Shown here piece by piece: positions 5,903-58,708 of a stretch of 64,000 nt of DNA; positions within the stretch are counted from its first letter, which is position 1; every line of letters begins with the position of its first letter. The notes under the pieces were generated by a model that ran no database searches, was not told where the DNA came from, and saw only the letters and a list, made by a program, of their open reading frames with translations. A program made the position numbers and the translations under genes. The DNA comes from Alphaproteobacteria bacterium (GTDB lineage Bacteria > Pseudomonadota > Alphaproteobacteria > Bin95): positions 736,001 to 800,000 of the forward strand of contig OZ224045.1 of NCBI GenBank assembly GCA_963665325.3, given 5' to 3'.

Positions 5903-5963
5903 CAGCCGGATTTCAGACCGATACCCTGCCGGCTAGTTCAGGCCAGCCATTTAACCGCCCGAG

Positions 5964-40954: not shown

Positions 40955-40981
40955 TTGACTACAGAAATTCCGTGCTAGAAT
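40955..40981 (+). promoter_or_regulatory. Candidate sigma70-type promoter facing the integrase genes
   Basis: TTGACT-15 nt-TAGAAT with an extended -10 (TGc TAGAAT) in an AT-rich patch; spacer shorter than consensus. Confidence 0.35.
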
Positions 40982-41192
40982 AAGCTTGAAGGAGGCGGCG
41001 TCCGCGGTCCGCTTCCCGCCCGCGCCGGCCCGGCGCGGAACGATCCCGATTCGACGCACAGGCGAAGTGCACCCTCCGGCTCGCGCGCGCAATCAGGCGC
41101 GCGAACCGCGCCGACGCGCGCCCGCCCGCACACGCGATACCGCACCTTCGGTGCTAACTATCTGACATGATTATGGAATTTTCCCGTTTCCG

Positions 41193-41241
41193 GTGCAACC
41201 GGGCGCGAGATCGAACCCGGTTTTGCACACACGTGCAACCG
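41193..41241. repeat. Short direct and inverted repeats upstream of integrase 1 (candidate arm-type sites)
   Basis: GTGCAACCG at 41193-41201 and 41233-41241; inverted variant CGGTTTTGCAC at 41218-41228. Confidence 0.5.
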
Positions 41242-41258
41242 ATCGGGGAGCCGCAGTC

Positions 41259-43690: not shown

Positions 43691-43712
43691 CCGGTGCTCC
43701 GACTGCCCGCCG

Positions 43713-44981
43713 GTGCCTCTCGCGCACCCGGCGCCGCCCCCCGAGGCCGCCGGCGAGGACCGCAGCGCCGCGGCCGGGGAACTGCCCGATGTCTGGATAG
43801 AGGCCGCCGCCGGCGCGTTCAGCGCCAATACCGGGCGCGCGCTGAAGGCCGATATGCGCATCTACAGGGCATGGTGCGCCGAAGAAGGGAGAGAGGCGCT
43901 GCCGGCCGCGCCCGACACGATCGTCGCCTTCGTGGACCCGATGGCGGCGACGCGCGCGCCGGCCACGGCGCGCCGCTACGTCGCCAGCATCGCGATGGCA
44001 CACCGGGCGGCCGGCAGCCCGGAGGCGCCGCGGAGCCCGGAGGTCAAGCTCGCGCTGAAGCGCACGCACCGCGACAGGGGACGCCGCCAGGCGCAGGCGC
44101 CCGGCCTCACCTGGCCGCTCAGGCAAAGACTGGCCGAGGCAACCGGAGACCGCCCGATCGACATCCGCAACCGCGCCCTCCTGGCCGTCGCCTACGACAC
44201 CATGCTTCGCCGCTCGGAACTTGCCGCGCTCAGGGTGTGTGACCTCGAGGTCGACGGGACGACCGGCGCGGGCACCGTGCTGGTGCGCAACTCCAAGACC
44301 GACGCCGAGGGCGAAGGCGCCGTGCTCTACGTCGCGCCCGACAGCATGGCGCTGCTGGCCGAGTGGCTGGAGTGGAGCGGCATTGCCGACGGGCGGCTGT
44401 TCCGTTCGCTCTGCCGCGGGCGGTTGGGCGAGGCGCTCGACCCGAGCCAGATCCCGCGCATCTACAAGACCATGGCGAGGCAGGCCGGGATCGAGGCCGG
44501 CCTGGCCGACCGCCTCTCCGGGCACAGCACCCGCGTGGGCGCGGCGCAAGACATGGTCGCACACGATATGAAGCTGCCGGCGATCCAGCAGGCCGGGCGC
44601 TGGAAGAGCCCCGACATGGCGACCCGCTACGGCGAGCGCCTCCTGGCGTCGCGCGGCGCCGCCGCGCATCTCGCCCGCCTGCAGGGGCGGGACGGACCCG
44701 CCGCGCGACGGTCCCCGCCGGCGCCGGCATCGGCCGTGCTCCCGGTTTGCGGTCTCCCGGATCGGGGCGCGCGCCGGGGCCAGGCCCTCCGCCGCCTCCT
44801 GGGCGGCGATGGCGCCGAATCCCGTTTCCACTGCGCCGATCCCCGACCGCTCGGCCGCGATCTTCTCAGCCTCCGCCAGGAACCTCCCGATCCCGCTCCG
44901 TTGCCTCAACATGCCGATGCCGTCGCGTGGCCCGGCCGCCGGTTCGAACACGAACTGTCGATGAGGAGGCGGCCGCCATAA
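43713..44981 (+). CDS. Cre-like tyrosine recombinase (start uncertain, C-terminal tail)
   Basis: RNRALLAVAYDTMLRRSEL, SKTD, SGHSTRVGAAQDM, AGRW..PDMATRY: the Cre-type R-K-H-R-W-Y set. Confidence 0.88.
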   Translation: MPLAHPAPPPEAAGEDRSAAAGELPDVWIEAAAGAFSANTGRALKADMRIYRAWCAEEGREALPAAPDTIVAFVDPMAATRAPATARRYVASIAMAHRAAGSPEAPRSPEVKLALKRTHRDRGRRQAQAPGLTWPLRQRLAEATGDRPIDIRNRALLAVAYDTMLRRSELAALRVCDLEVDGTTGAGTVLVRNSKTDAEGEGAVLYVAPDSMALLAEWLEWSGIADGRLFRSLCRGRLGEALDPSQIPRIYKTMARQAGIEAGLADRLSGHSTRVGAAQDMVAHDMKLPAIQQAGRWKSPDMATRYGERLLASRGAAAHLARLQGRDGPAARRSPPAPASAVLPVCGLPDRGARRGQALRRLLGGDGAESRFHCADPRPLGRDLLSLRQEPPDPAPLPQHADAVAWPGRRFEHELSMRRRPP

Positions 44982-45167
44982 TCCGGCCAGGGCTCCGGGT
45001 CGGCTCGGCGAGACCCTCATTCGCCCCCGTCGCCGAAACTGGAGCCGTCCCGCTGGCAAATCCGTGTTTTATGTGAATCCGTCAGGATTCGCGGCAACTC
45101 TGGCCAGGGCATGAAAAGCCCAGCTTATTCAGCAAGTTATGACAGTGCATTTGCCGCCGGCCCACAC

Positions 45168-45209
45168 CCGGTCTTCGTGCCGTAAGCGGGTGAATTTCAA
45201 CTGCTGACC
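45168..45209 (+). repeat. Degenerate direct repeat, copy A
   Basis: ccggtcttcg-tgccgt-aagcgggtgaatttcaactgctgacc; 34 of 43 aligned columns identical to 56885-56926 (manual alignment). Confidence 0.7.
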
Positions 45210-45383
45210 ACGACTGGCCCTTCATGACCCTTTCGTCGCAATTCGGAGCGCCCCCGGCTCCCTACCTGTCTCATCCTTGAGCGCCAACCAATGAGTTTAC
45301 GACCGACGCACAAGTTTGTCAGACGGGAACTGGTGCCACCGTACATTGCGGCGACGACTCGCCCATCGTTTTCTCGCGTCGCC

Positions 45384-45758
45384 CTATGTGGACCAAGCGT
45401 CGTAGACATTGCGCAATTCCTCGATCCAAAATTGCTCCTCATCCACTATTTGCCGTCCACGTGACCGGGCCAGCTGGAAGAATCCGGTTCCCGGTTTCAA
45501 ATCGCCCGTCTTGTGCACTACCACGACAGTGAGCAATCCCCGGCCGTCTTCGTCCTCTTCCGACGAGATTTGGCCAAGCATGTGAGCTAGATGAGTCCCA
45601 TTTGGCTCCAGAATGCAGCTCGTGATCTTCCGAACCAAGTCTGAGTAGGCGATCACGCTCTTGGACCGCGCAACAGCGATCATGGCCTGCCGTGCCTCTT
45701 CCTTCGCCGCGGACCATTGATCTTCTGAGAACCCGTGTTTGAAGCCCTCGCGTAGCAT
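45384..45758 (-). CDS. Small hypothetical protein, putative winged-helix-like DNA-binding domain
   Basis: IAYSDL...LGQIS...LLTVVVV..TG...PGTGFF pattern resembles small domains seen in defence islands; family not assigned. Confidence 0.7.
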   Translation of the reverse strand: MLREGFKHGFSEDQWSAAKEEARQAMIAVARSKSVIAYSDLVRKITSCILEPNGTHLAHMLGQISSEEDEDGRGLLTVVVVHKTGDLKPGTGFFQLARSRGRQIVDEEQFWIEELRNVYDAWST

Positions 45759-45934
45759 TAGCCGATCCCCGTCTTACCGGGAGGTGCCGTGACCTCCGGA
45801 CACGCCATTTCCCTCTTCCCCGTCAGCGCCGCCCGTCCGCTCATTCCCGACCTCGTAGCAATCCGCATTCCCCAAAGCCCACTTTGTCCTCTCCCCGAGA
45901 TACCGCAAGCCGAGATTCGCCTCCAGCGTCCGGC

Positions 45935-46179
45935 ATTGAAGTGCTGCCATCGCGGGGCGGTCGTCGTGTCTGGTCGGCCGACTCGAAGGCGCGGATCGTA
46001 GCGGAGACGCTTGCGGCGGGGGCGACCTTGCGCGAAGATCTGACGTCCATGAGACGCAAATGACGGGCTGGCGTCGCCTGGCACGGGTTGGACGTCTTGT
46101 TCTGTCGGCGGTGCAGACGGCGGTAGAGTTCGCGCCGCTGGTGGTCGGGAGCCCAATCAAGCCACCACGGCCTGTCTGA
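45935..46179 (+). pseudogene. IS66-family OrfA (TnpA, HTH) relic
   Basis: GRRVWSADSKARIVAETLAAGAT, then a frameshift to QMTGWRRLARVGRLVL...EFAPLVV; no tnpB/tnpC follows. Confidence 0.7.
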
Positions 46180-46361
46180 GCGTTGGCCGGCTCGATACAA
46201 GGCCGGCGCGGTTTGCGGCTGCCACCCCGCCACTTGAGCTATGGGCAACACGCGGACATCATTCGTCTATCACCGAGACCGCCCCTTTGGGCGATAATGC
46301 CGGTCGGCGTCGATCACCTCGCCGACGATGCGGGCCTGAATTCGAGGGGTCAACGACAGTA

Positions 46362-48839
46362 ATGGCCATCAAGAAGTCCGACCTCTACTCCTCTCTCTGG
46401 CAGTCCTGCGACGAACTCCGCGGCGGGATGGACGCGAGCCAGTACAAGGACTACGTCCTGTTCCTGCTGTTCATCAAATACATCAGCGACAAGTACGGGG
46501 ACAGCAACGACCTCGTCCCGCCCGTAACGATCCCCACGGGCGCGAGCTTCTCGGACATGCTCGAGCTGCGCGGCAAGAGCGACATCGGCGACAAAATCAA
46601 TACGCAGGTCATCGCCCCGCTTGTGCAGGCCAACGCGCGCCTGGCGCGCAGCGATTTCCCCGACTTCAACGACCCGAACAAGCTCGGCGAAGGGGACGAG
46701 AAGGTACAGCGGCTGACAAACCTGATCAGCATCTTCGACAGACCGGAACTCGACTTCTCGCAGAACCGCGCCGAGCACGACGACATCCTGGGCGACGCCT
46801 ACGAGTACCTGATGCGCCACTTCGCTACCGAGAGCGGCAAGAGCAAGGGACAATTCTACACGCCCGCCGAGGTCAGCCGTGTCATCGCCCAGGTAATCGG
46901 GATCTCGCCAGCGAACACGAAGGCATCCACCACCGCCTATGACCCGACCTGCGGCTCGGGCTCGCTGCTCCTCAAGGTGGCCGCCCAGGCAGGCAAGCGG
47001 ATTACCCTCGAAGGGCAGGAGAAGGATGTGACCACGGCGGGTCTGGCCCGCATGAACATGATCCTCCACGACTTTCCGACGGCGAATATCGTCGCGGGCA
47101 ACACGCTGGCTGCACCCAGGTTCAAGGACGGCGAGCGCCTCCGCACCTACGACTACGTCGTTGCCAACCCGCCGTTCTCTGACAAGACCTGGACGACCGG
47201 GCTCACGCCGCCCACCGACCCGTTCCAACGCTTTACCTGGGGCGAGCCGCCAGCCAAGCAGGGCGACTACGCGTACCTGTTGCACATCGTCCGTTCGATG
47301 CAGAGCACGGGAAAGGCCGCCTGCGTGCTGCCGCACGGAGTGCTGTTCCGCGGCAATGCCGAAGCCACGATCCGCGAGCAGCTTGTCCGCTCCGGCTACC
47401 TCAAGGGGATTATTGGACTGCCCTCGAACCTCTTTTTCGGCACCGGCATCCCCGCCTGCATCATTGTACTCGACAAGGAGAATGCTGCAGGTCGCAGAGG
47501 CGTCTTCATGATCGACGCCTCCAGGGGTTTCAGGAAGGACGGTCCCAAGAACCGGCTGCGCGAACAGGACATTCACAGGATCGTCGATACGTTCATGCGG
47601 CAGGTTGAAATACCGCGCTTCGCCCGCATGGTGCCATTCGAGGAGATCGCCGACCGGAAGAACGGCTTCAACCTCAACCTGCCGCGCTACATCGACAGCA
47701 CCGAACCCGAGGATCTGCAGGACATCGACGCCCACCTGCACGGCGGCATTCCGGAACGCGACGTGGACGCGCTTGGGGCGTACTGGCAGGTGCTCCCGAA
47801 CGTGCGCAGCTTCCTTTTCGAATGCGACAGTCGCCCCGGTTACGCGCGACTGAAGCCGCCGCTCACCGAGGTGAAGCGTGCGATCTTCGAGCACCCCGAG
47901 TTCACCGGTCTTCAGGAGACGACCGCGAAGGTTTTTCGTGATTGGCGCGAGGCCACCACGCCGCGACTCACAGGCTTCGGCAAGGGTGGTCACCCGAAGG
48001 AATTGATCGAGACCATCGCGGAGGATTTGTTGGCGGCGTTCCGGCAGTCACCGTTGCTTGATGCCTACGATGTCTACCAGCGTCTGATGGACTACTGGGG
48101 TGAATCAATGCAGGACGACGCTTACCTGATCGCCGCCGACGGCTGGCTGAACGGGGCGGAGCCGCGTGAAGTCGTCCAAGTGAAAGGCAAGAATGGTAAG
48201 CTCGCTTGGCCCGAACAGCACGATTACCTGAAGGGCAAGCGGCGCTTCAAATCGGATCTCGTCCCCGCGTCGATTCTGATCGCCCGCTACTTCGTTGCCG
48301 AACGCTCTGCACTTGAAGCGCTGGACGAACGACTTATCGCGCTGGCGCAACAGCTCGACCAATTGCGCGAGGAGAATAGCGGCGAGGACGGGTTGCTGGC
48401 TGAGGTGATCGAAGGCAACGGCGACAAACAGAAGATCACCGCGAGGGCTGTAAAGGCGCGGTTGAAGGAGATCAATTCTGACTATCTTTACGCCGACGAA
48501 CGAGCAGCACTCGAGCAGTACGCAGACCTACTAAAACAGCAATCAGACGTCAACTCGAAACGCAAGGCTGCGCAATGGGATTTGGACCGAAAGATCGACG
48601 CGAAATACCCGAAGCTCACTGAGACCGAGGTCAGAACGTTGGTGGTAGATGACAAATGGATGGTCCACCTGTCAGCCTCCGTGCACAGCGAGGTCGGCCG
48701 CGTCCCTCAGACACTCTACGGCCGCATTTGCCAACTATCCGGGCGCTACGGGACGACGTTACCAGACCTCGTCGACGGTTTGGATACACTCGCCGCTCGC
48801 GTCGAAGAACACCTCAAGATGATGGGCGCCGCACGATGA
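46362..48839 (+). CDS. hsdM: Type I R-M methyltransferase subunit
   Basis: LRGGMDASQYKDY, GQFYTP, DPTCGSG, NPPF, PHGVLFRG. Confidence 0.96.
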   Translation: MAIKKSDLYSSLWQSCDELRGGMDASQYKDYVLFLLFIKYISDKYGDSNDLVPPVTIPTGASFSDMLELRGKSDIGDKINTQVIAPLVQANARLARSDFPDFNDPNKLGEGDEKVQRLTNLISIFDRPELDFSQNRAEHDDILGDAYEYLMRHFATESGKSKGQFYTPAEVSRVIAQVIGISPANTKASTTAYDPTCGSGSLLLKVAAQAGKRITLEGQEKDVTTAGLARMNMILHDFPTANIVAGNTLAAPRFKDGERLRTYDYVVANPPFSDKTWTTGLTPPTDPFQRFTWGEPPAKQGDYAYLLHIVRSMQSTGKAACVLPHGVLFRGNAEATIREQLVRSGYLKGIIGLPSNLFFGTGIPACIIVLDKENAAGRRGVFMIDASRGFRKDGPKNRLREQDIHRIVDTFMRQVEIPRFARMVPFEEIADRKNGFNLNLPRYIDSTEPEDLQDIDAHLHGGIPERDVDALGAYWQVLPNVRSFLFECDSRPGYARLKPPLTEVKRAIFEHPEFTGLQETTAKVFRDWREATTPRLTGFGKGGHPKELIETIAEDLLAAFRQSPLLDAYDVYQRLMDYWGESMQDDAYLIAADGWLNGAEPREVVQVKGKNGKLAWPEQHDYLKGKRRFKSDLVPASILIARYFVAERSALEALDERLIALAQQLDQLREENSGEDGLLAEVIEGNGDKQKITARAVKARLKEINSDYLYADERAALEQYADLLKQQSDVNSKRKAAQWDLDRKIDAKYPKLTETEVRTLVVDDKWMVHLSASVHSEVGRVPQTLYGRICQLSGRYGTTLPDLVDGLDTLAARVEEHLKMMGAAR

Positions 48840-50002
48840 GCGCATGGGCTACGCTGCCCCTAGGCCAAGTGGTGACGTTCCAACGTGGCTACGATCTCCC
48901 ACATCACGCTCGGAAAACCGGAGAGATACCGATCATCAGCTCGGCTGGCGTTACCGACTTCCACGACGTGGCAATGGTCGATCCTCCCGGAGTCGTCACG
49001 GGCCGATACGGCACAATTGGAGAGCTCTTCCTAATCACTGAGCCGTTCTGGCCGCTGAACACGACGCTCTACGTCCGAGACTTCCATAGTAACGACCCGG
49101 GTTTCATTTACTACCTCCTGCAGAGGTTTGACTTCGCTTCTTTCAGCGGAAAAAGCGGAGTGCCAGGAGTAAACCGCAATGATCTTCATGTTGAAACGGT
49201 GTCACTGCCTACCAATCCCTTCGAGCAACATGTCATTGCGGCGGCGTTAAGCGATGTGGACGCGCTCTTAGACCGGTTGAGTCGGGTTATCGCCAAAAAA
49301 CGGGACCTAAAGTTGGCCGCTATGCAGCAGCTCCTGACGGGCCGGACGCGCCTCCCTGGATTCGATGGCGAGTGGGTTATTCAACGGCTGGGTGATCATG
49401 TTGAATTTCTACGAAACGGTGTGAACTCACGCGCTGAGCTTCTCCCAGAAGGTACTGTAAGATATCTCCACTATGGCGATATCCATGCTTGCAATGACAC
49501 TTATCTTTCCGTCGCTTTGCTCCCGTGCTTGCCTGACACAAAAGCGGCATCGCTTGATCGCCTGCAAGACGGCGATTTGATCTTTGCCGATGCATCGGAG
49601 GATGTCGCCGGAGTTGGTAAGTCGGTGGAGGTGAAAGAAGTTTGCAGTACGGAGGTCGTGTCGGGGTTGCACACAATCGCAGCACGTTTCGACAAAGAAG
49701 TGCTCGCCGACGGTTTCAAGGGCTTTCTTCAGTTCTGTCCACTGTTCGTGGCCCAGCTTCGTCGCCTCGCCTCAGGAACCAAAGTCTATGCAACTAACCG
49801 TGCACATATAGCGGGTATCGAGATGCCCCTACCTCCGGTTGGTGAGCAAGCGGCGATCACCACCGTCCTCTGCGACATGAATGCCGAAATTGCCGCCTTG
49901 GAAGCGCGGCGCGACAAGACATACGACCTGAAGCAGGCGATGATGCAAGAGCTGCTCACCGGTAAGACACGGCTCGTCGAGCCACAGACGGCTCATGCCT
50001 GA
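48836..50002 (+). CDS. hsdS: Type I R-M specificity subunit
   Basis: Two TRDs separated by repeated conserved blocks EQ..IA/T...MQ(Q/E)LLTG(R/K)TRL; overlaps hsdM and hsdR. Confidence 0.93.
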
Positions 50003-53000
50003 GCAGCTGCGGCCGGAGCGCGAGACGCAGAACCGCGTCGTCGCCCTGTTCAGCGATCTGGCGCGGTCTGACAACCTCGGCTACCGCTATCTTGGCGACT
50101 GGAGCAAACGAGAAGACAACCGCGCGGTCGAAACGGCGCTCCTGCGCGACAACCTCAAGTCCCGCGGCTATTCCGACGCCTACATTTCCGCAGCCCTCCA
50201 GAAGCTGGAGGCTGCCGCCGATTCAACCGGCATTACGCTCTACCAGGCGAACCTCCGCACCTACCGGCTCTTGCGCTACGGCATACCCGTGCAGATTGCC
50301 GCTGGCCAGGCCCACGAGACCGTGCACATCGTCGACTGGGAGGACCCGGAGAAAAACGATTTCGCGCTGGCCGAAGAGGTAACGTTGACAAGCGGCTACG
50401 AACGGCGACCGGACATCGTGCTTTATCTCAACGGCCTCGCCGTCGGTGTCATCGAACTGAAACGCAGCTCTGTGGAAATCGGCGACGGCGTCCGGCAGCT
50501 CATCACGAATCAGGAAGAAATCTTCAATACGGCGTTCTTCAGCACGGCTCAACTCCTCTTCGCCGGCAACGATTCACAAGGACTCCGCTACGGCACGACG
50601 GGCACACCGGAACAGTTCTTCGTGGAATGGAAGGATGAGGCGCCGGCTGCTGCCGAGCCTACTGTGGGCGCACTGCTCGACCGGCCGCTGGCCCAGATGT
50701 GCAACAAGGCCCGGCTGCTCGATCTGATTCGGAATTTCATGATCTTCGACGCCGGGCAAAAGAAGGTGCCGCGGGCGCATCAGTTCTTCGGCGTGAAAGC
50801 CGCGCAGGCGCGTATCGCAAAGCGCGAAGGCGGCGTCATCTGGCACACCCAGGGTAGCGGGAAGAGCATCGTGATGGTGCTGCTTGCGAAGTGGATTCTT
50901 GAGCAGGACCCCGACGCTCGCGTCCTCGTCGTCACTGACCGCGACGAACTGGACAAGCAGATCGAAGGAGTAATGAGGAACGCGGGGGTGATTGGCCCGG
51001 ACGCAGCCTCTCCGCGTATCACGTCGCGGGCTGAGTTCGTCGAGAAGCTTGGAGCGACGATGCCCCGACTCCTGTGTGCGCTGATCCACAAGTTCGACGC
51101 GGCCGACCTCAGGGGCAGTCCGCCGCCGATCTCAGGGCGCTTCTACGTGTTTGTAGACGAATGCCACCGCACTCAGGGCGGCGACATGAACCGCCAGATG
51201 AAGCGCTGGCTGGAAGGGGCGGTCTTCGTCGGCTTCACCGGCACGCCGCTCCTCCGCAAGGACAGGCGGATGACGCGGGATGTCTTCGGAACCTACATCC
51301 ACACCTACAAGTTCCATGAAGGAGTGGCCGACGGCGTCATCCTCGATCTCAAATACGAGGCGCGCGACGTTCCGCAGCGTCTGACCTCGCAGGCCGCTAT
51401 CGACCGATGGTTCGAGCAGAAGACCAAGGGCCTGAACAACTTCCAGAAGGCGGTGCTGCGCCAGCGCTGGGCGACGATGGAAGAGCTGATGAGCTCTGCC
51501 GAGCGTAAGCAGAGAATCATCGCCGACATCATTGAGGACTTCAGTCTTAAACCTCGACTCAATAATGACCGTGGCACGGCGATCCTGGTTGCCGCCTCGA
51601 TCTACGATGCCTGCCACTACTACCAGCTGTTCCAGAATACGGGCTTCGGTCCGTACTGTGGGATCGTCACGTCGTACGAGCCGAACCATAACGCGATTTC
51701 CCGCGAGCCGGCTGGCAGCAACGAACGCTATAAGTTCGACACCTACACCCTGCAAGTCCTCAAGGACGGCCAGACGGCCAACCAGTACGAGGAGGAGGCC
51801 AAGCGCCGTTTCATCGAAGAGCCGGCGCAGATGAAACTGCTGATCGTCGTGGGCAAGCTGCTCACTGGCTTCGACGCTCCGAGCTGTACGTACATCTATC
51901 TCGATAATGAGCTGCGCGACCATAACTTGTTCCAGGCCATCTGCCGCACGAACCGCCTCGACGGCGACGATAAGGATTACGGCCATATCGTCGATTTCAA
52001 GGAGCTTTTCGGCGAGGTGCAGGAAGCGGTGGCGGTCTACAGCTCGGACGAGCTTGACACCGATGCGGGTAATGGCGGCGACAACAACGTTCACGTCAAG
52101 GACCGGCTGAGCGAGGGCAGAAAGAAGCTCGACGAAGCCCGCGAAAAGCTGGGCTACCTTTGCGAACCGGTCCGAATGCCCCGCGAAGTCGAACAGTACC
52201 TTCGCTATTTCTGCGGCGACGCCGCGAACCCGAATGCGCTGCACGAGACCGAGACCCTGCGGATCTCGTTCTACAAGGCCGTTGCTGTCTATGTACGAGC
52301 CTTCGCGGCCATGGCGCAGGACCTGACAGAGGCGGGATACTCGGACCCGGAGGCAACCGCCATCGGGAAAGAAGTCGAGTTTTACGGCGAGATCCGTTCA
52401 GCCATCAAAAAGCACTCCGGCGAGGAACTGGACATCAAGCCGTACGAGACGGACATGCGCCATCTGCTGAACACGTACGTCCAGGCCGACCCTTCCGAGA
52501 GTCTCGGTGAACTGAGCGAGATGTCGCTGATGGAAGCGATTGTCGAGACCGGCATCCACAACGCTATCGCACGCAAGCTCAACGAGAGGGGCAAACTCTC
52601 CAGGAATGCGATTGCGGAAGGGATCGTCAACAATGTCCGAAAGACCATTGTCCGCAACCGGCTTACCGATCCCCGCTTCTACGAGCAGATGTCGAAGCTG
52701 CTCGACGACCTCATCAAGCAGAGCCGCGAGGATGCGGCGGCCTACGAGGAATTTCTCCGAAAGGCGGAGGCGCTCGTGAAACGGCTTATGGCCAGGCAGC
52801 TTGACGACGGCGTGCCGGCCGCGCTTCACGGCAGGCGGGAGGCGACGGTGGTGTACAACAACTTGCCGGAGATTCTCGCCGCCGGTCGCGCCCAAGCGGA
52901 TGGACTCGCCGAGGCGCCGGCCGAATTTGGGGACGAGCGTCTTAGGTTGTCGCTGGAGATCGACCGCGCGATGCGCGAGCAGGCGCCAGCAGGATGGAAG

Positions 53001-53114
53001 GGAGACCACGCGCGCGAGGCGCAGGTATTGAACGCGCTGTTTCCGCTGCTCGACCGGAATCGTGAGGCCACGCTGGCATTGTTCGAACTCTTAAAGAATC
53101 AGCCGGGTTACTGA
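49995..53114 (+). CDS. hsdR: Type I R-M restriction subunit
   Basis: PDIVLYLNG...IELK nuclease motif, [31 protein letters not shown]. Confidence 0.96.
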
Positions 53115-53830
53115 TGGAAGAGACCATCCAGCTCGGCGAGATTGCCATTGCTCTCACCCGCAAGAACGTCAAGCACGTCTACCTGTCGGTGCATCCGCCG
53201 AGCGGGCGTGTGACGCTCGTCGCCCCGAAGGGGACACGTAGTGCGGTGGCCCGCGCGTACGCGATCTCCAGACTCGGGTGGATTCGGGACGAGCGGATAA
53301 AGATGCTTGGACAGGCGCGCGAGACGGCGCGCCAATTCGTCGAGCGCGAGAGCCACTACCTATGGGGTCGGCGCTACCTCTTGACCGTCAGGGAAGAAGA
53401 GGCGAAGCCCTCCATTCGTCTAAGCCATCGCGCCATCATGCTCACAGTGCGTCCCGGCAGCGGCGAGGTCAAACGCGCAGCGGTCATGCACAAATGGCAC
53501 AAGTCGCTTCTGCATGAGGTCGTTCGGGAACTGATCCCAAGGTGGGAGCCCAAGCTGGGTGTCGAGGTGTCCGGCTACTTCCTGCAACGAATGAAGACGA
53601 AGTGGGGTAGCTGCAATCACCGCGCCCGCACCATACGGCTCAATACGGAGCTCGTGAAAAAGCCCAAGGATCTGCTCGAATACGTGGTGGTCCACGAGAT
53701 GCTGCACCTCTTGGATCCGACGCACAGCGAGCGGTTCCTCGGGCTAATGAACAAGCATTACCCCACCTGGCGAGAAGCCAGGGCTGAACTGAATGAGTTG
53801 CCGCTTACCGCAGCGTCGTGGAACGAATAG
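53114..53830 (+). CDS. M48/SprT-like (YgjP family) zinc metallopeptidase, commonly downstream of hsdR
   Basis: MKTKWGSC, YVVVHEMLH (HExxH), HSERF. Confidence 0.9.
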   Translation: MEETIQLGEIAIALTRKNVKHVYLSVHPPSGRVTLVAPKGTRSAVARAYAISRLGWIRDERIKMLGQARETARQFVERESHYLWGRRYLLTVREEEAKPSIRLSHRAIMLTVRPGSGEVKRAAVMHKWHKSLLHEVVRELIPRWEPKLGVEVSGYFLQRMKTKWGSCNHRARTIRLNTELVKKPKDLLEYVVVHEMLHLLDPTHSERFLGLMNKHYPTWREARAELNELPLTAASWNE

Positions 53831-54049
53831 TTCCTCAGAACCCTCCCCCATAAAGCCCTGTTGCGCTATAATTTGCTGTCGCACCGCGCGCCACCAGCGG
53901 CCAGCAAGCAAATTGCTGTTCTTTCTCCAACACCTTGGTCTCCAGTGTTAATTCAAGAAATTCTACCTTCTGCAGAAATTTCACCCATTCCATTCCTTCA
54001 TAGATACGCAATAAATTTGTACAATATTTTCACAGCGCTGAGCGACTAA

Positions 54050-54247
54050 GACGGCAAGAGCCTCGGGCAGGTCGAACCCAAGGTGGAGCCGCTGCTCACG
54101 GTCGACCCGTTGCATCCCGGAAAACTGCGCACAAAAAGGAGCCCGATCACCCCTGCCAAGCACGACGACGATACTGCGGATAACGCCACCATCAAGGTCG
54201 CGCTGGGCGACTTAAAGCACCTCAAGAAGCAGTACCTGCCCACGTAG
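54050..54247 (+). pseudogene. Possible 3' gene remnant without a start codon
   Basis: Open frame with coding-like codon usage (DGKSLGQVEPK...ATIKVALGDLKHLKKQYLPT*), preceded by an AT-rich stretch. Confidence 0.3.
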
Positions 54248-54310
54248 ACGTTTCCTGTCGAATTCGGCTCTCGATACGCCCGAGGCCGCATATCTCGCCC
54301 GTCCCAGCAA

Positions 54311-56419
54311 TCATGCGTCAACGGCGCCATTTCCCATTTGCTTCTCGAAAGCTTGGCGCACGAGTCCCATGACGTACGGAAGCTCTTCGACTGTACTCAG
54401 TGCAATTTCTGCATCGCCGTTACCCCATCGGCCGAGGTTGGTCACGTCTCTTGCCAGTCCCTTGGGATCGTGTAGTTCATGAAATTTCAGGTTGAGAGAG
54501 AGCCGCAGGCGGCTCAGTTGCGGCACGACGTCCACGAAGTTGGTCTCAGCCTTGTAGGCAACGTATAGTTTCAAGAACTCTTCGCTCACGCAGCTATCAA
54601 GCGACAATACGGACTTGCGGAAGGCCTCGAACACCGGTTGCATGGGGCTGGTCGGGGCTAGATGCGGATGATCGTTGAGGCTGTAACTCGACGGCGCCTC
54701 GGGCTTTGCGCGGAGATCCGCCAATATATCGGCCGGTAGCGCCGGTGGTGCCCAGACCTTCGCGGCTTTGGTCGCCAATCGCTCAGCACGCTCCTGGATA
54801 GTATCTTCGTTCCAGACTTGCAGCCCACCGAGGCCTTCATTTAATCGCAGTGGACTCTCCTTCAACCCACCTGTCATATCGCGCTTCCTTGCAAAAGCAT
54901 GATCACTGTACTCGGGGTTGTATCCAGTCAGCGTCAAATTCCCGAGCGTATGCAACCATCTAGCCTGCACTTGCTGCCATTCGGAGCCCAGTGCCGCTCG
55001 CCACTCGGCTGAGAGGTTCTCATTCTGCGGCATAATGTGTTCGATTGTGTATTCGTCAACCGGCACCCGCTCTTTACGTTCATGATTTTCCAAGCGACGC
55101 AGCCAGTAGCTGCGACGCGGGAAGTTGTAGAGGTCGCGCACTGCCAGCTCACGCTTGAACTCCTCGTCCCCTGGAAAGCGTCTGTAGGACGGCAGGGTGA
55201 GTAGATGGGCCTGGATGCTCTGGACGTACCGGTCCTTCTTGAGTGCACGACCAAACGTGGCAAAGGTCTTATTGAGCGAGTTGGTAGGTATAGAGCACAC
55301 CGCTCGCCGGAACACGTAGGCTTCGATCAAGCGAACAGACTGGATAAGGTCCAGTTTCGGAAGACGACCGCGAACGTAGTCGTCGTAAAGCTCAAGCAGA
55401 AACGGAAACGCCACGTCCACCTTCAGCTCTCGGAGATCCCGGAATACCGGCGCGAGATCGCCGTCTTGTTCCTTGTCGAGAGCCATCGCGCAGTAGTAGT
55501 CGGCGTAGCCATGAATGTCGGCTACCAACGTATCCACGCCGGCAGAGGCCACATCAGGCGATCGTGCGTGGCCCTTAAACGCTTCGTAAACGGCCCGAAC
55601 GTTGGGGATATCACCAGTCTTTAGTGTCAAATAATGGCGCATAAAGCCATCGAAATGCGTGCCGTATGCTTCCTGCCCGAAAGCAATTTCCATAGGGTGC
55701 CAATGTTCCTCATAAAGGCGCATCTGGTGGGCCGGCTCCAATCCCATCAAAATGAAGTTACGGATCAAGTCTGCTTGGCTAAGCTCACGTCCAGTTGAGT
55801 TCATACTTTCGAATATTAGCTGAGGATTGTCTTGCTCGCGACTCAATGCGACATCCACGATTGTGAGTTTCGCAAGCCCTTTACAGAGAGGCGCAAGTCC
55901 CGTCTTGCCGAGCGCTCGTACCCGTCCATCGAAAAAATCGAAGTTCTGCGTAATGCGCAATGAGTGGCCCATCGACTGGGGCTTTTGCTGCATGAGCGCG
56001 AGTAGGCTTTGTTTATCCGTCTGAGTTAGCAGAAGTTTAAATCCACGTTCTCCCTCTTCCAAAGGGTTGAGGAGATAGTAGTTGCGAAGTTTCTTCGCCG
56101 AAAATCCATCCATTGGCTCATCATCACCCACATGCCTTGCCAAAGCCTCGAGAATCAGCATGACAGTTGTGAGGCGCTGCTGTCCGTCAATGACAAGCAA
56201 TGGCGACTGGCTGGATACCTGATAGAGGCCTTTTTCGATATAAACGATTGAGCCAGTGAAGTGAGCAGGAATAGCGTCATTAATGCCCGTTCGCAAGATG
56301 TCTTCCCAAAGCTGTCGGCACTGCCGCTCCGTCCAGCTATAAGTGCGCTGGTAAATTGGTATTACGAACTGGGGCGATTTCTTTAAGAATTTTAGGAAAT
56401 TGGCTTCAGTTGCTTTCAC
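54311..56419 (-). CDS. Fused GmrSD-like protein (DUF262 + DUF1524 HNH) with an extra C-terminal DUF5655-like domain
   Basis: IPIYQRTYSW, IDGQQRLTT, FESMNSTG; TIEHIMPQ...LGNLTL..N; C-terminal KLYVAYK...GRWGNGD; GTG start. Confidence 0.88.
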   Translation of the reverse strand: MKATEANFLKFLKKSPQFVIPIYQRTYSWTERQCRQLWEDILRTGINDAIPAHFTGSIVYIEKGLYQVSSQSPLLVIDGQQRLTTVMLILEALARHVGDDEPMDGFSAKKLRNYYLLNPLEEGERGFKLLLTQTDKQSLLALMQQKPQSMGHSLRITQNFDFFDGRVRALGKTGLAPLCKGLAKLTIVDVALSREQDNPQLIFESMNSTGRELSQADLIRNFILMGLEPAHQMRLYEEHWHPMEIAFGQEAYGTHFDGFMRHYLTLKTGDIPNVRAVYEAFKGHARSPDVASAGVDTLVADIHGYADYYCAMALDKEQDGDLAPVFRDLRELKVDVAFPFLLELYDDYVRGRLPKLDLIQSVRLIEAYVFRRAVCSIPTNSLNKTFATFGRALKKDRYVQSIQAHLLTLPSYRRFPGDEEFKRELAVRDLYNFPRRSYWLRRLENHERKERVPVDEYTIEHIMPQNENLSAEWRAALGSEWQQVQARWLHTLGNLTLTGYNPEYSDHAFARKRDMTGGLKESPLRLNEGLGGLQVWNEDTIQERAERLATKAAKVWAPPALPADILADLRAKPEAPSSYSLNDHPHLAPTSPMQPVFEAFRKSVLSLDSCVSEEFLKLYVAYKAETNFVDVVPQLSRLRLSLNLKFHELHDPKGLARDVTNLGRWGNGDAEIALSTVEELPYVMGLVRQAFEKQMGNGAVDA

Positions 56420-56884
56420 GGCATACCCTTTTCTTCAACAAGATTTCTGCCCTATCCTCGATATGTGTGATCGAAGAGTAATCGATGCAGGCTTCGAACC
56501 TCTCTTGGAAGTTGCTTGCACAACCTAATAGGCGTATATGCGGCGGAATAGCCGGGTCGGTAGCCATCATACCGGCAACTCAGCGTTTGGCTATATTCTT
56601 GGTCACCAGCAGGACGATGCTCAGAAAGTCAGGAATCGTACCGTAACCGCTTCAGGTCGAAGTCGGTTACATCCAGGCGGTCGTTGGTCGCGATCAAGCG
56701 CAGCCAGATCATCGCAGATATCCTTTCAGATCCCGCTTGGTTGATGCCGTAATGCCTGGCATTCTTCCCGACATTCACGTTTCTGCTTGTTCTGTCATAA
56801 CCCGCCGGCCGCGGCCGGGCCGACCGCTGCAACCCCAAGCGAGGCCTCGATTCTCCGGTCCGCTGGAAGGAACCGGCGACGCCG

Positions 56885-56926
56885 CCGGTCTTCGCAGCAA
56901 AAGCGCGTGATTTCAACCTGCTGTCC
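56885..56926 (+). repeat. Degenerate direct repeat, copy B (overlaps right arm of hairpin 56862-56898)
   Basis: ccggtcttcg-cagcaa-aagcgcgtgatttcaacctgctgtcc; same orientation as copy A, 11,717 bp downstream. Confidence 0.7.
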
Positions 56927-56968
56927 CTCACCGGCTTCGCGTGTCCCCGGCCCCCGGCCAAACCCGGT

Positions 56969-57256
56969 TCATCCCCTATGTCGAGAATTCACGGCATCCT
57001 TCAGCGGCTTGCCGGCCTTGAAGACCGGTGCGGTCGAGGCCGCGATCTCGACCTGCTCGCCCGTGCCCGGACTACGCCCTGTGCGCGCCGGTCGGTTTCG
57101 CGTCCCGAACGTGCCGAATCCGAGGATCCGCGCCTCCTCGCCATTCGCCAGGGCCTCGGCAATCACCTCGAACACGCCGTCGACTGCATCCTTCGCGGCG
57201 GCCTTGCTCATTCCCGTCCGGCCTGCCAGACGCTCCGCCAGTTCCGACTTGTTCAT
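56969..57256 (-). CDS. HU family DNA-binding protein
   Basis: MNKSEL...GFGTF..RNRPARTGRSPGTGEQVEIAAS..PVFKAGKPLKDAVN. Confidence 0.94.
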   Translation of the reverse strand: MNKSELAERLAGRTGMSKAAAKDAVDGVFEVIAEALANGEEARILGFGTFGTRNRPARTGRSPGTGEQVEIAASTAPVFKAGKPLKDAVNSRHRG

Positions 57257-57423
57257 CCATGCGCTCCCGTTCTCGCCAACTGCTTCGTCCCGAGCCTGAG
57301 TAGCATGCTGCGCCCGGCTACTCGATATCCGCGTAACTCCCGTTCCCCTTCGCCCTGCGCATGGACAGTCCCGTCCGGAGCCTGTCTCATGGCCGCGAGT
57401 CCCTTTCGGACAGGCCTTGTGCG

Positions 57424-57849
57424 ATGGAAAGCGACGAGCAGCTTCGGGAAAAACTCGCCAAGGTCGAAGCCCTGTTTCGGCAGGCCGGCAGTCCGGGGGA
57501 GCGGGTAGCTGCCGGGGCCGCAATGGAGCGGCTGCGCGGGCGCCTCGGCAATGCCGGCAAGGAAGGCGGACCGGAGACGGAACTCCAGTTCCCGTTACCC
57601 GACATGTGGTCGGTCAGCCTGTTCATCGCCATCTGCCGCAAGCACGGCCTGCGTCCCTTCCGCTACGCGCGGCAGCGCCGCACGACCGTCATGGTCCAAG
57701 CCCCCGAACGGCCCTTCAACCGCGTGGTATGGGCCGCGTTCAGCCGGCTTCATACCGAACTCCAGATGTACTTCCAGGACGTTATCGACCATCTGATTAC
57801 GCGCGCCATGGGCCTGGACGGCGATGACAGTACCATCGGGCGCCGGTAG
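57424..57849 (+). CDS. Hypothetical protein with DUF2786-like N-terminal helices
   Basis: LREKLAKVEALF..AGSPGE..AA; WSVSLFIAICRKHG..PFRY.RQRRTTVMV. Confidence 0.7.
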   Translation: MESDEQLREKLAKVEALFRQAGSPGERVAAGAAMERLRGRLGNAGKEGGPETELQFPLPDMWSVSLFIAICRKHGLRPFRYARQRRTTVMVQAPERPFNRVVWAAFSRLHTELQMYFQDVIDHLITRAMGLDGDDSTIGRR

Positions 57850-57929
57850 TCGCCATGCCACTCCGGCGTGCTTCGGCTCTTCGATGCCGCTCGACCGGCA
57901 AATGCAATCCGCCGGAATCCGTTGGCCGG

Positions 57930-58193
57930 TCAGTCCTCGCGAGGTTCGACAATCACGCGCTTGCGGCCCCGCCGAACGATGTAGCCGCCCCGCCGAATTG
58001 AAAGCCGACCTTCCTGGACCAGGGGCCACAACGCATTCGAGATCACCTCCGCATTTTCATCGGCCTGCGGCGCCTCGACCGCCCGGTCGAGCCATTTCGC
58101 AAATGCCTCATCCGCAATGGCAGGCCCCAGGGACTTGCGAAGGGCATTGAGTTTCCGGAGATTGCCTTTCGAAAGGGCGCCTTCATCGATCAT
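57930..58193 (-). CDS. Small hypothetical protein with basic C-terminus
   Basis: 87-aa ORF with a GGGAGG RBS; ends RRGGYIVRRGRKRVIVE. Confidence 0.7.
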   Translation of the reverse strand: MIDEGALSKGNLRKLNALRKSLGPAIADEAFAKWLDRAVEAPQADENAEVISNALWPLVQEGRLSIRRGGYIVRRGRKRVIVEPRED

Positions 58194-58708
58194 GCTGGCA
58201 GCCTCCCTTCATCGGATTGCACCGAACAGCCCATTAATGAACGCGATTCGTACAATATGTAACTCCCTCGCCGGCTATCCTTCAAATTCAATTACCCCGC
58301 CGACTGTGCTGGTCCGATCGGCCATCCGCCGCCCGGGTGGAAGGCACGGCGTGCGTCTCCTCGAACAATGAACACTTGTCCTGCGCCGCCGGAAGACCGG
58401 GTCCGGCCATGAGGCCGGATCGGGCTTTGCTGCGGGCGAGGAGGACAAGCGAAAGCGGCCGTCCATCCGGAGTCCGCCGGCGTCTTGCCGGGTAGACGGT
58501 TCTTCGTTTTCGGAATTGGCCTTTGGCGACGGCATGTGATCGCTTCCACTTGCTCGCGGAGATCGGGAAGGAGGCGTCGCCGTGCCCTTGAGCAGAGGGC
58601 CTTGCCGTTCAGAACCTGCCGGGAGCGATGCCATGTCGCGTTGCCTTGCGCCAGGTTCGCGCGCGTCCGGTCGTTGCTCCGATGCTGGACGCGTTATGAT
58701 CCCCTCCC

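Follow-up and report, generated by a model that had tools for sequence, protein, structure and literature searches.

Does the low-GC defence module that follows a Cre-like recombinase gene in this genome form an exchangeable cassette, and which sequences delimit it? In the window, i.e. the whole analysed stretch of 64,000 nucleotides, a sequence-only reading had proposed that two degenerate direct repeats, copies A and B, are the recombination sites of a swappable cassette. Our analysis upholds this reading in part: homologous, site-like repeats delimit low-GC cargo, and cargo and flanks vary between loci, whereas neither a hybrid or empty site nor a link to the Cre-like gene emerged.

Copies A and B are homologous direct repeats

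Copies A (45168–45209) and B (56885–56926) lie where they had been placed, in the same orientation, and both are intergenic (A inside 44981–45384, B inside 56419–56969). Their likeness extends past the 34 of 43 columns reported earlier: blastn aligned 45168–45218 with 56885–56935 over 52 columns, 39 of them matching, with 2 gaps. Across the 5.58-Mb genome as a whole, the best match of A, leaving aside its own duplicate on contig C4, was B (34.0 bits, E 0.007; runner-up 32.6 bits, E 0.019), and the best match of B was A (runner-up 29.7 bits). An nhmmer profile of 11 cores, all from other genomes and with no sequence of this genome, gave only A (E 1.3e-19), its C4 duplicate and B (E 6.7e-13) at E < 0.01; the remainder in this genome consisted of one weak partial match at C1:2168809 (E 0.018) and matches at E ≥ 0.12. 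These matches of an outside-genome profile indicate that the motif is neither a chance similarity nor the genome-wide dispersed repeat that had been considered as its refutation. Copies A and B are thus homologous direct repeats. A longer profile of whole X units (see below) did not recover B at E ≤ 10, because B has only the core in common with X.

An X core is more similar to those of X units in other genomes than to its own genome's Y core, and there is therefore no sign of recent A–B exchange. The identical stretches of A and B (10, 8 and 6 bp) are not preserved in genomes G016 or G013. GC content is lower between the copies (0.48–0.65) than outside them (0.62–0.75), in line with the earlier description. 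The inverted 10-mers near the two copies were also located as described; the 9-mer GTTAYGRCA occurs in the window only at these two places, with 0.52 occurrences expected and at least two in 13 of 100 shuffles.

The copies are cores of self-contained units

The claim of 42-bp sites had to be revised, since the copies are cores of self-contained units of ~190 bp with sharp edges, X at 45066–45258 and Y from 56777.

45066–45258, + strand: unit X (left arm of class I, core, tail of class a), bounding the defence module on the left
45168–45209, + strand: copy A, covering the initial two thirds of the unit X core (~62 nt, 45168–45229)
56777–56946, + strand: unit Y (left arm of class II, core, tail of class b), bounding the defence module on the right
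56885–56926, + strand: copy B, a portion of the unit Y core

Each unit consists of a left arm of ~100–120 nt (class I or II), a core of ~62 nt and a short tail (class a or b). In all, 84 units were found across same-genus genomes and metagenome contigs, with 65–82% identity between units. Copies of X, which matched a whole-unit profile at E 9.8e-53, are present in 5 of the 16 other genomes of the genus (70–82% identical), and the edges of X are sharp in 11 contexts. Copies of Y are present in G016 (85%) and G013 (77% and 78%). The left edge of Y falls at 56777–56780 in contigs L169, L153, L172 and L160, and Y adjoins the 3' end of an HU gene.

The arms are mosaic: the 64 metagenome units include 22 I-a, 16 II-b and 7 II-a, and the same three combinations are represented in the genome units (n = 21). 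All units share one strand in each of the 14 metagenome loci with at least two units, and likewise in the genome loci L014 (five units within 16.6 kb), L020 (three), L018 and L019 (two each). The order of unit types is regular, X standing first and class II closing the series; in contig L160 the succession is X, 4.4 kb, a II–X pair, 5.5 kb, Y. The family is confined to few places in the genome and has a common orientation at each locus, and cargo differs between the same unit types. Among the close pairs, 12 of 14 are II-then-I doublets spaced 260–268 nt apart, which a simple attP × attB scheme does not predict.

Across the units there is no consistent reading frame. A structured RNA was ruled out by Rfam, which gave no match at E ≤ 1 in a search covering 40800–59000 of the window, and by RNAalifold, whose consensus fold of 20 units contained just 2 pairs (−0.12 kcal/mol). 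No lox/dif-type inverted-repeat core (11-6/8-11) stood above chance in the units; the best, 8 of 11, was equalled by 63 of 200 shuffles. No target gene was found of which the units could be the 3' end.

Cargo and flanks change around the same units

The segment from X to Y is a predicted 11.5-kb defence cassette comprising type I restriction-modification (R-M), a YgjP-like peptidase and GmrSD.

45384–45758, − strand: ORF of 124 aa without a family match
46287–48839, + strand: hsdM, true start probably later (Pfam N6_Mtase 2.6e-93; PADLOC MTase_I E 0)
48656–50002, + strand: hsdS (Pfam Methylase_S 2.7e-11; PADLOC Specificity_I 6e-80)
49995–53114, + strand: hsdR (Pfam HSDR_N/SWI2_SNF2; PADLOC REase_I E 0)
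53114–53830, + strand: YgjP-like metallopeptidase gene (Pfam YgjP-like 9.8e-55)
54311–56419, − strand: GmrSD-like type IV restriction gene with DUF5655 tail (Pfam GmrSD_N 4.8e-33, GmrSD_C 9.7e-24; PADLOC Orf5 1.1e-192, mREase_IV 2.8e-24)

Two annotations of the sequence-only reading were not borne out: the supposed winged-helix-like ORF at 45384–45758 had no match in Pfam, NCBIfam or PADLOC, and the sole support for an IS66 relic was a sub-threshold HTH_Tnp_1 match (E 0.019). The stretch 45259–45998 (740 bp), which holds the 124-aa ORF, is missing from contigs L143 and L166, which have the same R-M genes.

Pairs of X and Y occur in constant order and orientation at three spacings: 11.7 kb here, 10.6 kb in G016 and 2.4 kb in G013. 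As the swappable-cassette reading predicts, the cargo between these unit types is unrelated. In G016 it comprises a retron RT-Toprim (E 5e-211), a type III methylase (E 0), an IS transposase and a ResIII helicase, and in G013 two ORFs without a family. Arms and flanks also reassort around the units. The metagenome contigs L143 and L166 have X and the type I R-M genes in common with the window (83–90% nucleotide identity) and differ upstream, while L170 has the Cre-like gene and X in common with it and differs downstream. The upstream class u1 is paired with three downstream classes (window, L170 and L142), and the downstream class d1 with both u1 (L170) and u2 (G016a and L158).

Neither predicted product of exchange was found. 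The empty site, a class I arm with a b tail, was not seen among the 64 metagenome and 21 genome units, and none of the 84 units was an A/B hybrid junction; no A-to-B joint was among the 15 of 91 joints listed from four public runs, taken as assembled contigs. In G010, a 294-bp direct repeat (94% identical) around 3.7 kb contains one unit plus the left arm of the next, and its breakpoint lies 13 nt ahead of the core, outside it.

Relation of the recombinases to the units

Three tyrosine recombinase genes precede unit X.

41193–42386, + strand: tyrosine recombinase 1, P4-like (Pfam Phage_integrase 5.8e-16, Arm-DNA-bind_3 1.6e-06)
42383–43690, + strand: tyrosine recombinase 2, P4-like (Pfam Phage_integrase 1.1e-21, Arm-DNA-bind_3 2.3e-06)
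43584–44981, + strand: tyrosine recombinase 3, Cre-like, start uncertain (Pfam Phage_integrase 1.5e-17, no arm domain)

The assignment of the third enzyme was correct, its best PDB matches being Cre (E 2.7e-27, over residues 67–363), and copy A starts 187 bp past its stop, consistent with the proposed ~190 bp. Its final ~100 residues are not conserved, and in contig L170 window position 44510 is joined straight to 45005. Its proposed role as partner of the sites was not supported, as gene and units are not co-distributed: among 17 genomes of the genus, the gene is present in 8, units in 6, and both in 3.

Recombinases 1 and 2 are paired in 78 of 80 related loci, and the homology of recombinase 2 to its closest relatives stops at ~43530. 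In those 80 relatives the stretch between the end of the second recombinase and the start of the relaxase is variable, and in 79 of them no unit lies within 10 kb. Five genome cases (the window, L016, L019, and L014 twice) show a recombinase gene or fragment that ends 70–200 bp upstream of a unit, and contigs L170 and L142 likewise have a recombinase just upstream. In about half of the genome regions with units (L013, L017 and L015), no recombinase lies within 10 kb.

The module is nested in a larger island

The HU and relaxase genes to the right of Y, formerly taken as backbone, belong to the same ~40-kb island as the module, whose true ends are at ~41140 and outside the window.

40953–41139, + strand: left part of a dispersed, promoter-like, GC-rich element; the island's integration target
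41129–41139, + strand: left copy of the 11-bp direct repeat ACACGCGATAC; island left junction
56969–57523, − strand: HU/IHF-family DNA-binding protein gene (Pfam Bac_DNA_binding 2.9e-30; domain in residues 90–179 of the listed ORF)
57361–58150, + strand: pair of short conserved ORFs (162 and 108 aa) located between the HU and relaxase genes
58709–64000, + strand: TrwC-type (MOBF) relaxase-helicase gene (Pfam TrwC 1.9e-71, AAA_30 1.3e-48), extending past the window end

The island, of which this genome has two copies, runs from window position ~41140 to C1:~817134 and contains two P4-like recombinases, one Cre-like recombinase and the TrwC relaxase. The target element gave 67 blastn matches in the genome, itself included. 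In an alignment with 9 other copies of this element, the window copy and the C4 copy break after ...GCGATAC. The right copy of the 11-bp repeat lies outside the window at C1:~817124–817134. The right junctions on C1 and C3 are identical, ...TACACGCGATAC being followed across the junction by GCGCGAAACAGGG, and the left junction on C4 reads CACAAGCGATAC, with one mismatch. The X–Y module is nested in a larger island that integrates by different ends, namely an 11-bp repeat in a dispersed element.

On the metagenome contigs, an HU match adjoins 13 of 16 Y-type units on the downstream side. The two small ORFs had no family in Pfam or NCBIfam and are kept beside HU in contigs L162, L167, L169 and L175; in L169 the whole block Y–HU–orf162–orf108–trwC is conserved.

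Possible functions of the units

We tentatively favor, with slightly less than even confidence, the reading that the units are candidate recombination sites delimiting exchangeable modules. Copies A and B are the conserved cores of X and Y, members of one family of non-coding units of ~190–200 bp found at module boundaries in integrative, relaxase-bearing islands of the genus and of related uncultured Alphaproteobacteria. The units would act as site-specific recombination sites of the att/lox kind, at which multi-gene modules may be inserted, stacked and exchanged. A dedicated recombinase working in the core would carry out the exchange, and we infer that it may be an arm-binding tyrosine recombinase, one of those whose genes often lie directly upstream of a unit; the Arm-DNA-bind_3 domains of recombinases 1 and 2 would fit the long unit arms. 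Further points in favor are the reciprocal best matches of A and B and their recovery by the outside-genome profile, the constant X–Y order around unrelated cargo, the single strand per locus, the mosaic arms, the reassorting flanks, the recombinase genes that end shortly before units, and the lack of both RNA structure and a reading frame.

Several observations count against this reading: the missing recombination product, recent A–B exchange and lox/dif-type core, the loss of the A/B identical stretches in G016 and G013, the separate distribution of the Cre-like gene, the 79 of 80 unit-free relatives of the recombinase pair, the half or so of the regions without a near recombinase, and the frequent II-then-I doublets.

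The units could instead be origin-of-transfer-like sites (nic regions) handled by the TrwC-type relaxase, which would start at one direct site and end at the other, so that the segment between them is recombined out or transferred. We consider this unlikely. Y lies 1.8 kb upstream of the relaxase gene, 13 of the 16 Y-type metagenome units retain the Y–HU part, and HU/IHF-type proteins fit a relaxosome. Self-contained sites that remain whole as their flanks change are in keeping with recombination of one site with an equal one, and the units are not linked to the Cre-like gene. TrwC of R388 is described as recombining two copies of its nic site in a site-specific manner, and as recognising a short hairpin that has a GAAA loop and, after it, a single-stranded stretch (PMC4176350). 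In the units, a 2-bp hairpin around G(G/A)AAGC is retained, one pair being changed from CG to GC in 5 of 55 cores, and in Y a 5-bp stem with a GAAA loop can be traced by eye. However, the hairpin is tiny, and in helix 1 two of six pairs are unpaired, in 21 and 36 of 55 cores. Moreover, no unit at E ≤ 0.01 is present in the four loci with the closest relaxases (54–69% identity; L061, L064, L067 and L098), many units (X in G016, G011 and G005) lie more than 10 kb from any relaxase, and tight doublets of origins would be unusual.

It is likewise improbable that the units are functional non-coding segments, such as protein-binding platforms (for HU-like or other proteins) or module-edge terminators or insulators, which serve as homology patches of ~200 bp and are shuffled by ordinary homologous recombination with no dedicated enzyme. 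Conservation spans whole units, with sharp edges in every context, and not the core alone; the G010 repeat looks homology-driven; and a palindromic core, an empty site and, in about half of the regions, a nearby recombinase are absent. However, 65–82% identity makes the units a poor substrate for homologous exchange, left arms and tails of the different classes are found in varying combinations around the core, a single strand is used per locus (14 of 14 metagenome loci), and recombinase genes repeatedly end just upstream of units. A small non-autonomous, MITE-like mobile repeat, with A and B as independent insertions flanking the defence genes by chance, would explain the sharp edges, the self-containment, the many different flanks and the 84 copies within a limited group of genomes and contigs. 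We regard it as very unlikely: inspection of the alignments revealed no terminal inverted repeats or target duplications, the 5.58-Mb genome has units in just two places, both within one island, orientation is always equal within a locus, Y-type units are fixed beside HU (13 of 16), and unit types follow a regular order. Chance similarity in GC-rich DNA, which a pairwise score barely above the genomic background (E 0.007 vs the next at E 0.019) might suggest, is already refuted by the outside-genome profile (E 1e-19 and 7e-13); A and B are also reciprocal best matches 11.7 kb apart, each within a unit conserved in other genomes.

Comparison with known systems

The arrangement resembles Cre/loxP in that the third recombinase matches Cre and direct repeats would give excision. 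In contrast to loxP, neither unit has a 13-8-13-like inverted-repeat core, and units and Cre-like gene differ in their distribution. As in integrons, a recombinase gene stands beside the first site, and same-orientation sites separate exchangeable cargo; however, the NCBIfam integron-integrase score is 32.8 against a cut-off of 265, the units have no attC-like folded structure, and the modules are multi-gene, up to 11 kb long, with genes on both strands. The R388 TrwC system shares with this locus a relaxase of the TrwC family 1.8 kb from Y and direct repeats that stay intact while their flanks change, and differs in that the closest relaxase homologues here are without units. Pipolins and GMT systems are reportedly mobile elements as well, in which a recombinase module is combined with a variable region where defence systems abound; the present island has no PolB, and its GmtZ score is 14.6 against a cut-off of 600.

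The likeness to GInts concerns the 40-kb island and not A/B. Like the island, GInts carry three tandem tyrosine recombinase genes at the 5' end, a large mixed cargo that includes R-M, a short AT-rich 3' end and imperfect flanking direct repeats of 10–17 nt; they insert site-specifically, more than one copy per genome is possible, and a part of their integrases in cargo capture is considered feasible but unproven (PMC5385486). Here, the third gene encodes a full Cre-like enzyme, whereas GinC is without catalytic residues; no ginD-like gene was found in the island, the conserved core is a gene pair (78 of 80 loci) and not a trio, and a relaxase is present, whereas GInts are described as non-mobilizable (PMC10214605). 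The comparison with GInts is one of described features. In the 'Tyr duo' IMEs of Prevotella (MTnPi1-3), two distantly related tandem tyrosine recombinases form the integration module and the element also has mobilization functions; these are compared by review description only, and the passages on them mention no internal unit family (PMC5704250).

Cis-mobilizable elements (CIMEs) differ from the present module in that the units are not the ends of the surrounding island, which uses the 11-bp repeat, and in that the sites here are ~190 bp long, self-contained and 65–82% alike, excision being only putative. The likeness is that the module has no integrase or transfer genes of its own, is flanked by direct att-like sites and adjoins an integrase-bearing element, and that same-orientation sites separate arrayed modules, as the review outlines for CIMEs (PMC5704250). 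Tandem accretion of integrative elements and CIMEs is known, in the same account, for ICESt1/ICESt3-type elements and IMEs (PMC5704250).

Results

Copies A and B belong to a family of units

Copies A (45168-45209) and B (56885-56926) are short direct repeats that lie on the same strand, at the coordinates assigned by the sequence-only reading, whose account of their intergenic positions, the inverted 10-mers, the GC contrast and the short distance (187 bp as measured) between copy A and the Cre-like gene was also borne out. Blastn lengthened the match between them to 52 columns, of which 39 agree, with 2 gaps; the score of the pair alone is modest. Over the whole 5.58-Mb genome, A finds B as its best match once the duplicate of A is set aside (E 0.007; the following match has E 0.019), and A is the best match of B. 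An nhmmer profile of 11 cores, all from other genomes and none from the source genome, recovered A (E 1.3e-19), its duplicate on contig C4 and B (E 6.7e-13); the only other match below E 0.12 in the source genome was a weak, incomplete one at C1:2168809 (E 0.018). Because a profile drawn from other genomes finds A and B and nearly nothing else, the repeat is real and is not dispersed through the genome, a possibility raised in the same reading.

A and B are the cores of units of about 190 bp, X and Y, which are direct and homologous. Non-coding DNA 70–82% identical to X is present in five of 16 further genomes from this genus, and several of these copies often share a genome. Y has matches in the same-genus genomes G016 (85%) and G013 (twice, 77–78%), and these always terminate at the 3' end of an HU gene. 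A search with a degenerate core pattern gave 47 metagenome stretches, where a rough estimate of chance expects about two; by profile, 46 of them contain units, 64 in all. The joint alignment divides a unit into a left arm of 100–120 nt, a core of about 62 nt and a tail; the two arm classes, I and II, are distantly alike, and the tails form classes a and b. The unit types are as follows.

X, window 45066-45258, core copy A: arm I, tail a (I-a)
Y, window 56777-56946, core copy B, same strand as X: arm II, tail b (II-b)
Z: arm II, tail a (II-a)

The metagenome units comprise 22 I-a, 16 II-b, 7 II-a, 13 of class II with an ambiguous tail and 6 others, and the same three combinations of arm and tail occur among the 21 units from genomes. 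A match to HU follows 13 of the 16 metagenome II-b units. The cores of X units are nearer to X cores of other genomes than to the Y core of their own genome. Support from structure is weak for both an imperfect inverted repeat around the core (GGTCWT...ATGACC) and a 2-bp core hairpin (84.5% of cells paired, one covarying pair); the structure was derived from the same sequences. The 9-mer GTTAYGRCA occurs only twice in the window, at 45136-45144 and 56793-56801 in opposite orientation; among units from genomes its position is kept in five of seven X units (-32) and two of four Y units (-92). The 9-mer is a candidate arm-type protein-binding site.

Cargo and flanks vary around the units

Between X and Y, the source genome carries a type I restriction-modification (R-M) system, a YgjP-like peptidase and GmrSD; the remaining ORFs of the A-B interval are unknowns, and none is a recombinase or transfer gene. 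The corresponding cargo is a retron RT-Toprim, a type III R-M system and an IS element in G016 (C1:2432313-2443291; L013, L057), and two unknown ORFs in G013. Different cargo between the same sites, which the cassette proposal had called for, is thus seen in three genomes. The G016 retron consists of a type I-C reverse transcriptase fused to Toprim (PADLOC E 5e-211), and the type III methylase and helicase of that genome are split by an IS5-type transposase.

Units at multi-unit loci all point in one direction (14 of 14 metagenome loci and all four genome loci). Locus L014 has five units within 16.6 kb, the final one adjoining HU; contig L160 is laid out as X, 4.4 kb, a II-I doublet, 5.5 kb and Y; and in 12 of 14 close pairs a class II unit precedes a class I unit. 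The flanks reassort as well. Loci L143 and L166 have X with the same R-M genes (83–90% nucleotide identity), a different upstream flank and no equivalent of window 45259-45998. Contig L170 keeps the Cre-like gene and X and differs downstream, and L169 keeps Y-HU-orf162-orf108-trwC and differs upstream. Among 11 aligned X units, one upstream class (u1) occurs with three downstream classes, and one downstream class (d1) with two upstream classes. One-strand arrays, varied cargo and reassorting flanks are marks of a recombination site or hot spot.

Locus L020 (G010:C34) contains a direct repeat of 294 bp (94% identical; reverse-strand coordinates 5761-6054 and 9726-10019), in which a Z unit is joined to the left arm of the X unit that follows it. 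The two copies flank 3.7 kb including an HU gene, and the right breakpoint is 13 nt before the X core.

Search for recombination products and for other identities of the units

An empty site would be a I-b unit, and none was found among the 64 metagenome and 21 genome units. Four public runs, all of assembled contigs, were compared over window 41000-60999, and the 15 joints listed, of 91, include no A-to-B joint. The hybrid or empty A/B junction that had been proposed as a check was absent from these units and listed joints. Run X2 has one contig that ends at 45208 and a next that starts at 45190, both inside A, and a single contig that spans B; the ends inside A may mark a branch in the assembly graph.

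A structured RNA was rejected: Rfam gave nothing at E <= 1 in 40800-59000, and RNAalifold covariation was about zero on six X units in either strand, with two pairs on 20 units. For a lox-type site, the best of eight units reached 8/11 at unconserved places, equalled by 63 of 200 shuffles. With no lox-like core and no folded structure, the sites are unlike loxP and integron attC, as the sequence-only reading held. Promoter and terminator scans found nothing inside X or Y.

The core has a reading frame (e.g. window 45168-45227) of the form PV(I/F)VP(K/E)A..F.L..T.GPS, in which X and Z units stop (TGA/TAG) at the same position and variation is third-position-like at several codons. A small protein or gene 3' end was rejected, given internal stops in five of 21 units and frameshifts in several. 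Five peptides of this frame, searched by tblastn against the genome and all loci, matched only the units themselves, and no parental gene came to light; the frame could be a relic of the 3' end of a target gene.

The units were also rejected as the ends of the island itself, since an 11-bp repeat is all that the right end (C1:816700-817200) significantly shares with the left end, and it shares nothing significant with X or Y. The left island end resembles the core by eye, with no profile match behind the resemblance, and of 80 related recombinase-pair loci, 79 gave no match to the core profile at their left ends. The right end of the related G016 element (L016) was not found within 12 kb.

Recombinases at the left end of the island

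The island opens, at its 5' end, with three tandem Phage_integrase ORFs (41193-44981).

Recombinase 1, 41193-42386: P4-like
Recombinase 2, 42383-43690: P4-like
Recombinase 3, 43584-44981: Cre-like

The third matches Cre end to end (E 2.7e-27), with R...HxxR...W...Y residues discernible by eye in the translation, and no conserved small ORF was found between 44981 and X. The P4-like recombinases represent a very large family in uncultured Alphaproteobacteria (loci L059-L138; 120 stretches confirmed by tblastn), with up to seven or more pairs per single genome among the 80 loci kept. Recombinases 1 and 2 stand side by side in 78 of these 80, and a Cre-like match accompanies them in only two; the family is in reality a pair. 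A TrwC relaxase gene follows several pairs at 1.6–4 kb (L061, L064, L067). The closest relatives of the pair are free of units at 79 of 80 loci, and their variable region has the end of recombinase 2 (~43530) as its left boundary and the trwC start (58695-58708) as its right, the latter boundary being seen in four of 14 loci compared. Across the genus, the Cre-like gene is present in eight of 17 genomes, units in six and both in three, an overlap that equals chance expectation. In five genome cases and two contigs, a unit is closely preceded by the end of a recombinase gene or gene fragment.

The island and its second copy

The right side of the defence module had been taken for high-GC backbone; this was not so, the setting being a 40-kb island and not the chromosome backbone. 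Window 41134-55436 recurs as the start of contig C4, identical except for one indel, and the remaining 39 differences of the alignment all fall within 41016-41133, a stretch that belongs to the left part of a dispersed element. Contig C3 closes with a second occurrence of the last 13.5 kb of the island. Two island copies of about 40 kb are therefore present in the genome.

First copy: C1:777140-817134
Second copy: C3:1325264-1338693 and C4:1-14439
Gene order: two P4-like arm-binding recombinases, Cre-like recombinase, X, defence genes, Y, HU, two small ORFs, TrwC relaxase, sugar and LPS cluster, AT-rich end
Right half, surface-polysaccharide cargo: C1:802029-814378 (L042:2029-14378)
Dispersed element, left part: window 40953-41139; element of about 200 bp; 67 blastn hits on contigs C1-C5

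One part of the second copy closes C3 and the other opens C4, which implies that these contigs join; the middle of this copy, including the expected copy B, is absent from the assembly. The last 10.6 kb of C4 (1093422-1104050) are 99.99% identical to C2:99777-110405, a stretch with further internal repeats, and form another unresolved repeat at a contig end.

Both island ends carry the 11-bp direct repeat ACACGCGATAC (10/11 at the left end of the second copy). The first recombinase starts 55 bp from the left junction, and on the right, beyond the window, the right part of the dispersed element, displaced by the island, resumes at C1:817135 after about 350 AT-rich bases and ACACGCGATAC. This element, which has a promoter-like head (CTTGAC...TAGAATG) followed by conserved GC-rich palindromes (CGCGCGCAATCAGGCGCGCG...) and no match in Rfam, is the integration target of the island. 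It is broken after ...GCGATAC, and the window and C4 copies interrupt two different copies of it at the identical point.

The two outer flanks of the island, the purH side and the region corresponding here to C3:1324710, are 7 bp apart in the related genome G012 and hence represent the ancestral empty site; purH adjoins the equivalent region in both G012 and G016. Either the two island copies have since swapped flanks or the assembly is chimeric there. The purH-side flank connects to different regions in five relatives, which is informative only once the second copy is known.

The right half encodes a lipid A acyltransferase, several glycosyltransferases, an FkbM methyltransferase, a TupA-like ATP-grasp protein and a YrbL-like protein, so that surface-polysaccharide cargo and defence genes share one element, whose cargo amounts to about 35 kb. 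A scan of 20 ORFs in C1:800001-819000 gave sugar and LPS genes and no type IV secretion family.

Discussion

How multi-recombinase genomic islands acquire large blocks of cargo is an open question; the paper describing GInts calls a role of the integrases in cargo capture feasible, without evidence (PMC5385486). The window offers a concrete, testable handle on this question: a family of ~190-bp units with left-end and right-end types, arrays of up to five, three different loads between the same unit types and flanks that reassort around them. Our leading interpretation, tentative and somewhat short of probable, is that the units are site-specific recombination sites at which modules insert, stack and exchange. 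The A-B interval would then be a module of this sort, comparable to the accreted and cis-mobilizable elements described in PMC5704250. The enzymes likeliest to act on the units would be arm-binding tyrosine recombinases, because recombinase genes or fragments end just upstream of units in the genome cases and contigs noted. The earlier cassette idea is supported in part: the same unit types bracket different cargo in three genomes, and no recombination product was seen. Should the units prove to be active sites, whole defence systems of uncultured Alphaproteobacteria would have a means of modular exchange, and the units would add new recombination sites.

A more ambitious version, which we regard as rather doubtful, makes the units the sites of a system whose cassettes are defence modules of several genes and kilobase size. 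Class I units would mark the left ends of the modules and class II units the right ends, and a recombinase of the host island, or its relaxase, would be responsible for excising, stacking and swapping them. The system would function as an integron whose cargo is entire defence systems, with long bipartite sites instead of attC hairpins, and, if true, it would explain how multi-recombinase islands are loaded with cargo. The placement of Y beside the TrwC gene is consistent with another view, that the units are oriT-like sites handled by the relaxase (compare MOBF oriT, and PMC4176350); however, all four loci with the closest relaxases are without units and the hairpin is weak, a 2-bp helix with one covarying pair, and we consider this view unlikely. 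Similarly improbable, in our judgment, is that the units are conserved functional segments acting only as patches of homology, an explanation that the 294-bp repeat of G010 fits. Were they such patches, or relics, a 40-kb island present in two copies would still have been mapped cleanly, together with its integration target. We give very little credence to a MITE-like repeat.

Modules flanked by att sites in composite islands are known, and our finding is a variant thereof, in which site-specific insertion and exchange of modules at the units remains our preferred reading. With its recombinases and TrwC relaxase, the island may be an integrative and mobilizable element (IME), a class that combines an integration module and a relaxase of its own and lacks a full set of conjugation genes. 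Like a CIME or accreted module, the A-B interval has direct homologous sites at its ends and no recombinase or transfer genes inside; it differs in that the units are unrelated to the junctions of the surrounding island, and no excision product was seen. The NCBIfam integron-integrase models score 16–33 bits against cut-offs of 265–435, and the units, unlike integron sites, have no consensus structure; unlike lox, they lack two inverted arms of ~11–13 bp around a 6–8-bp spacer. RIT elements comprise three recombinase genes and terminal inverted repeats without cargo (PMC10214605); the island bears its large cargo. In the parts consulted of the literature on GInts, SEs, RITs, Tn554, Tyr-duo IMEs, pipolins and GMT elements, the unit family is not described.

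The layout of the island resembles that of GInts as described in PMC5385486: three tandem tyrosine-recombinase genes at the 5' end, site-specific insertion, imperfect direct repeats of 10–17 nt and an AT-rich 3' end are all matched. The resemblance fails on the third gene and on ginD. GinC lacks part of the catalytic motif, whereas the third protein of the island is a full-length Cre match, and in the place of ginD no conserved small ORF was found between the third recombinase and X. The last ~100 residues of the Cre-like ORF (window 44511-45004) are of low complexity and unconserved, and contig L170 fuses window 44510 straight to 45005. Either the true end of the gene may be earlier, or an insertion of 494 bp may account for 44511-45004.
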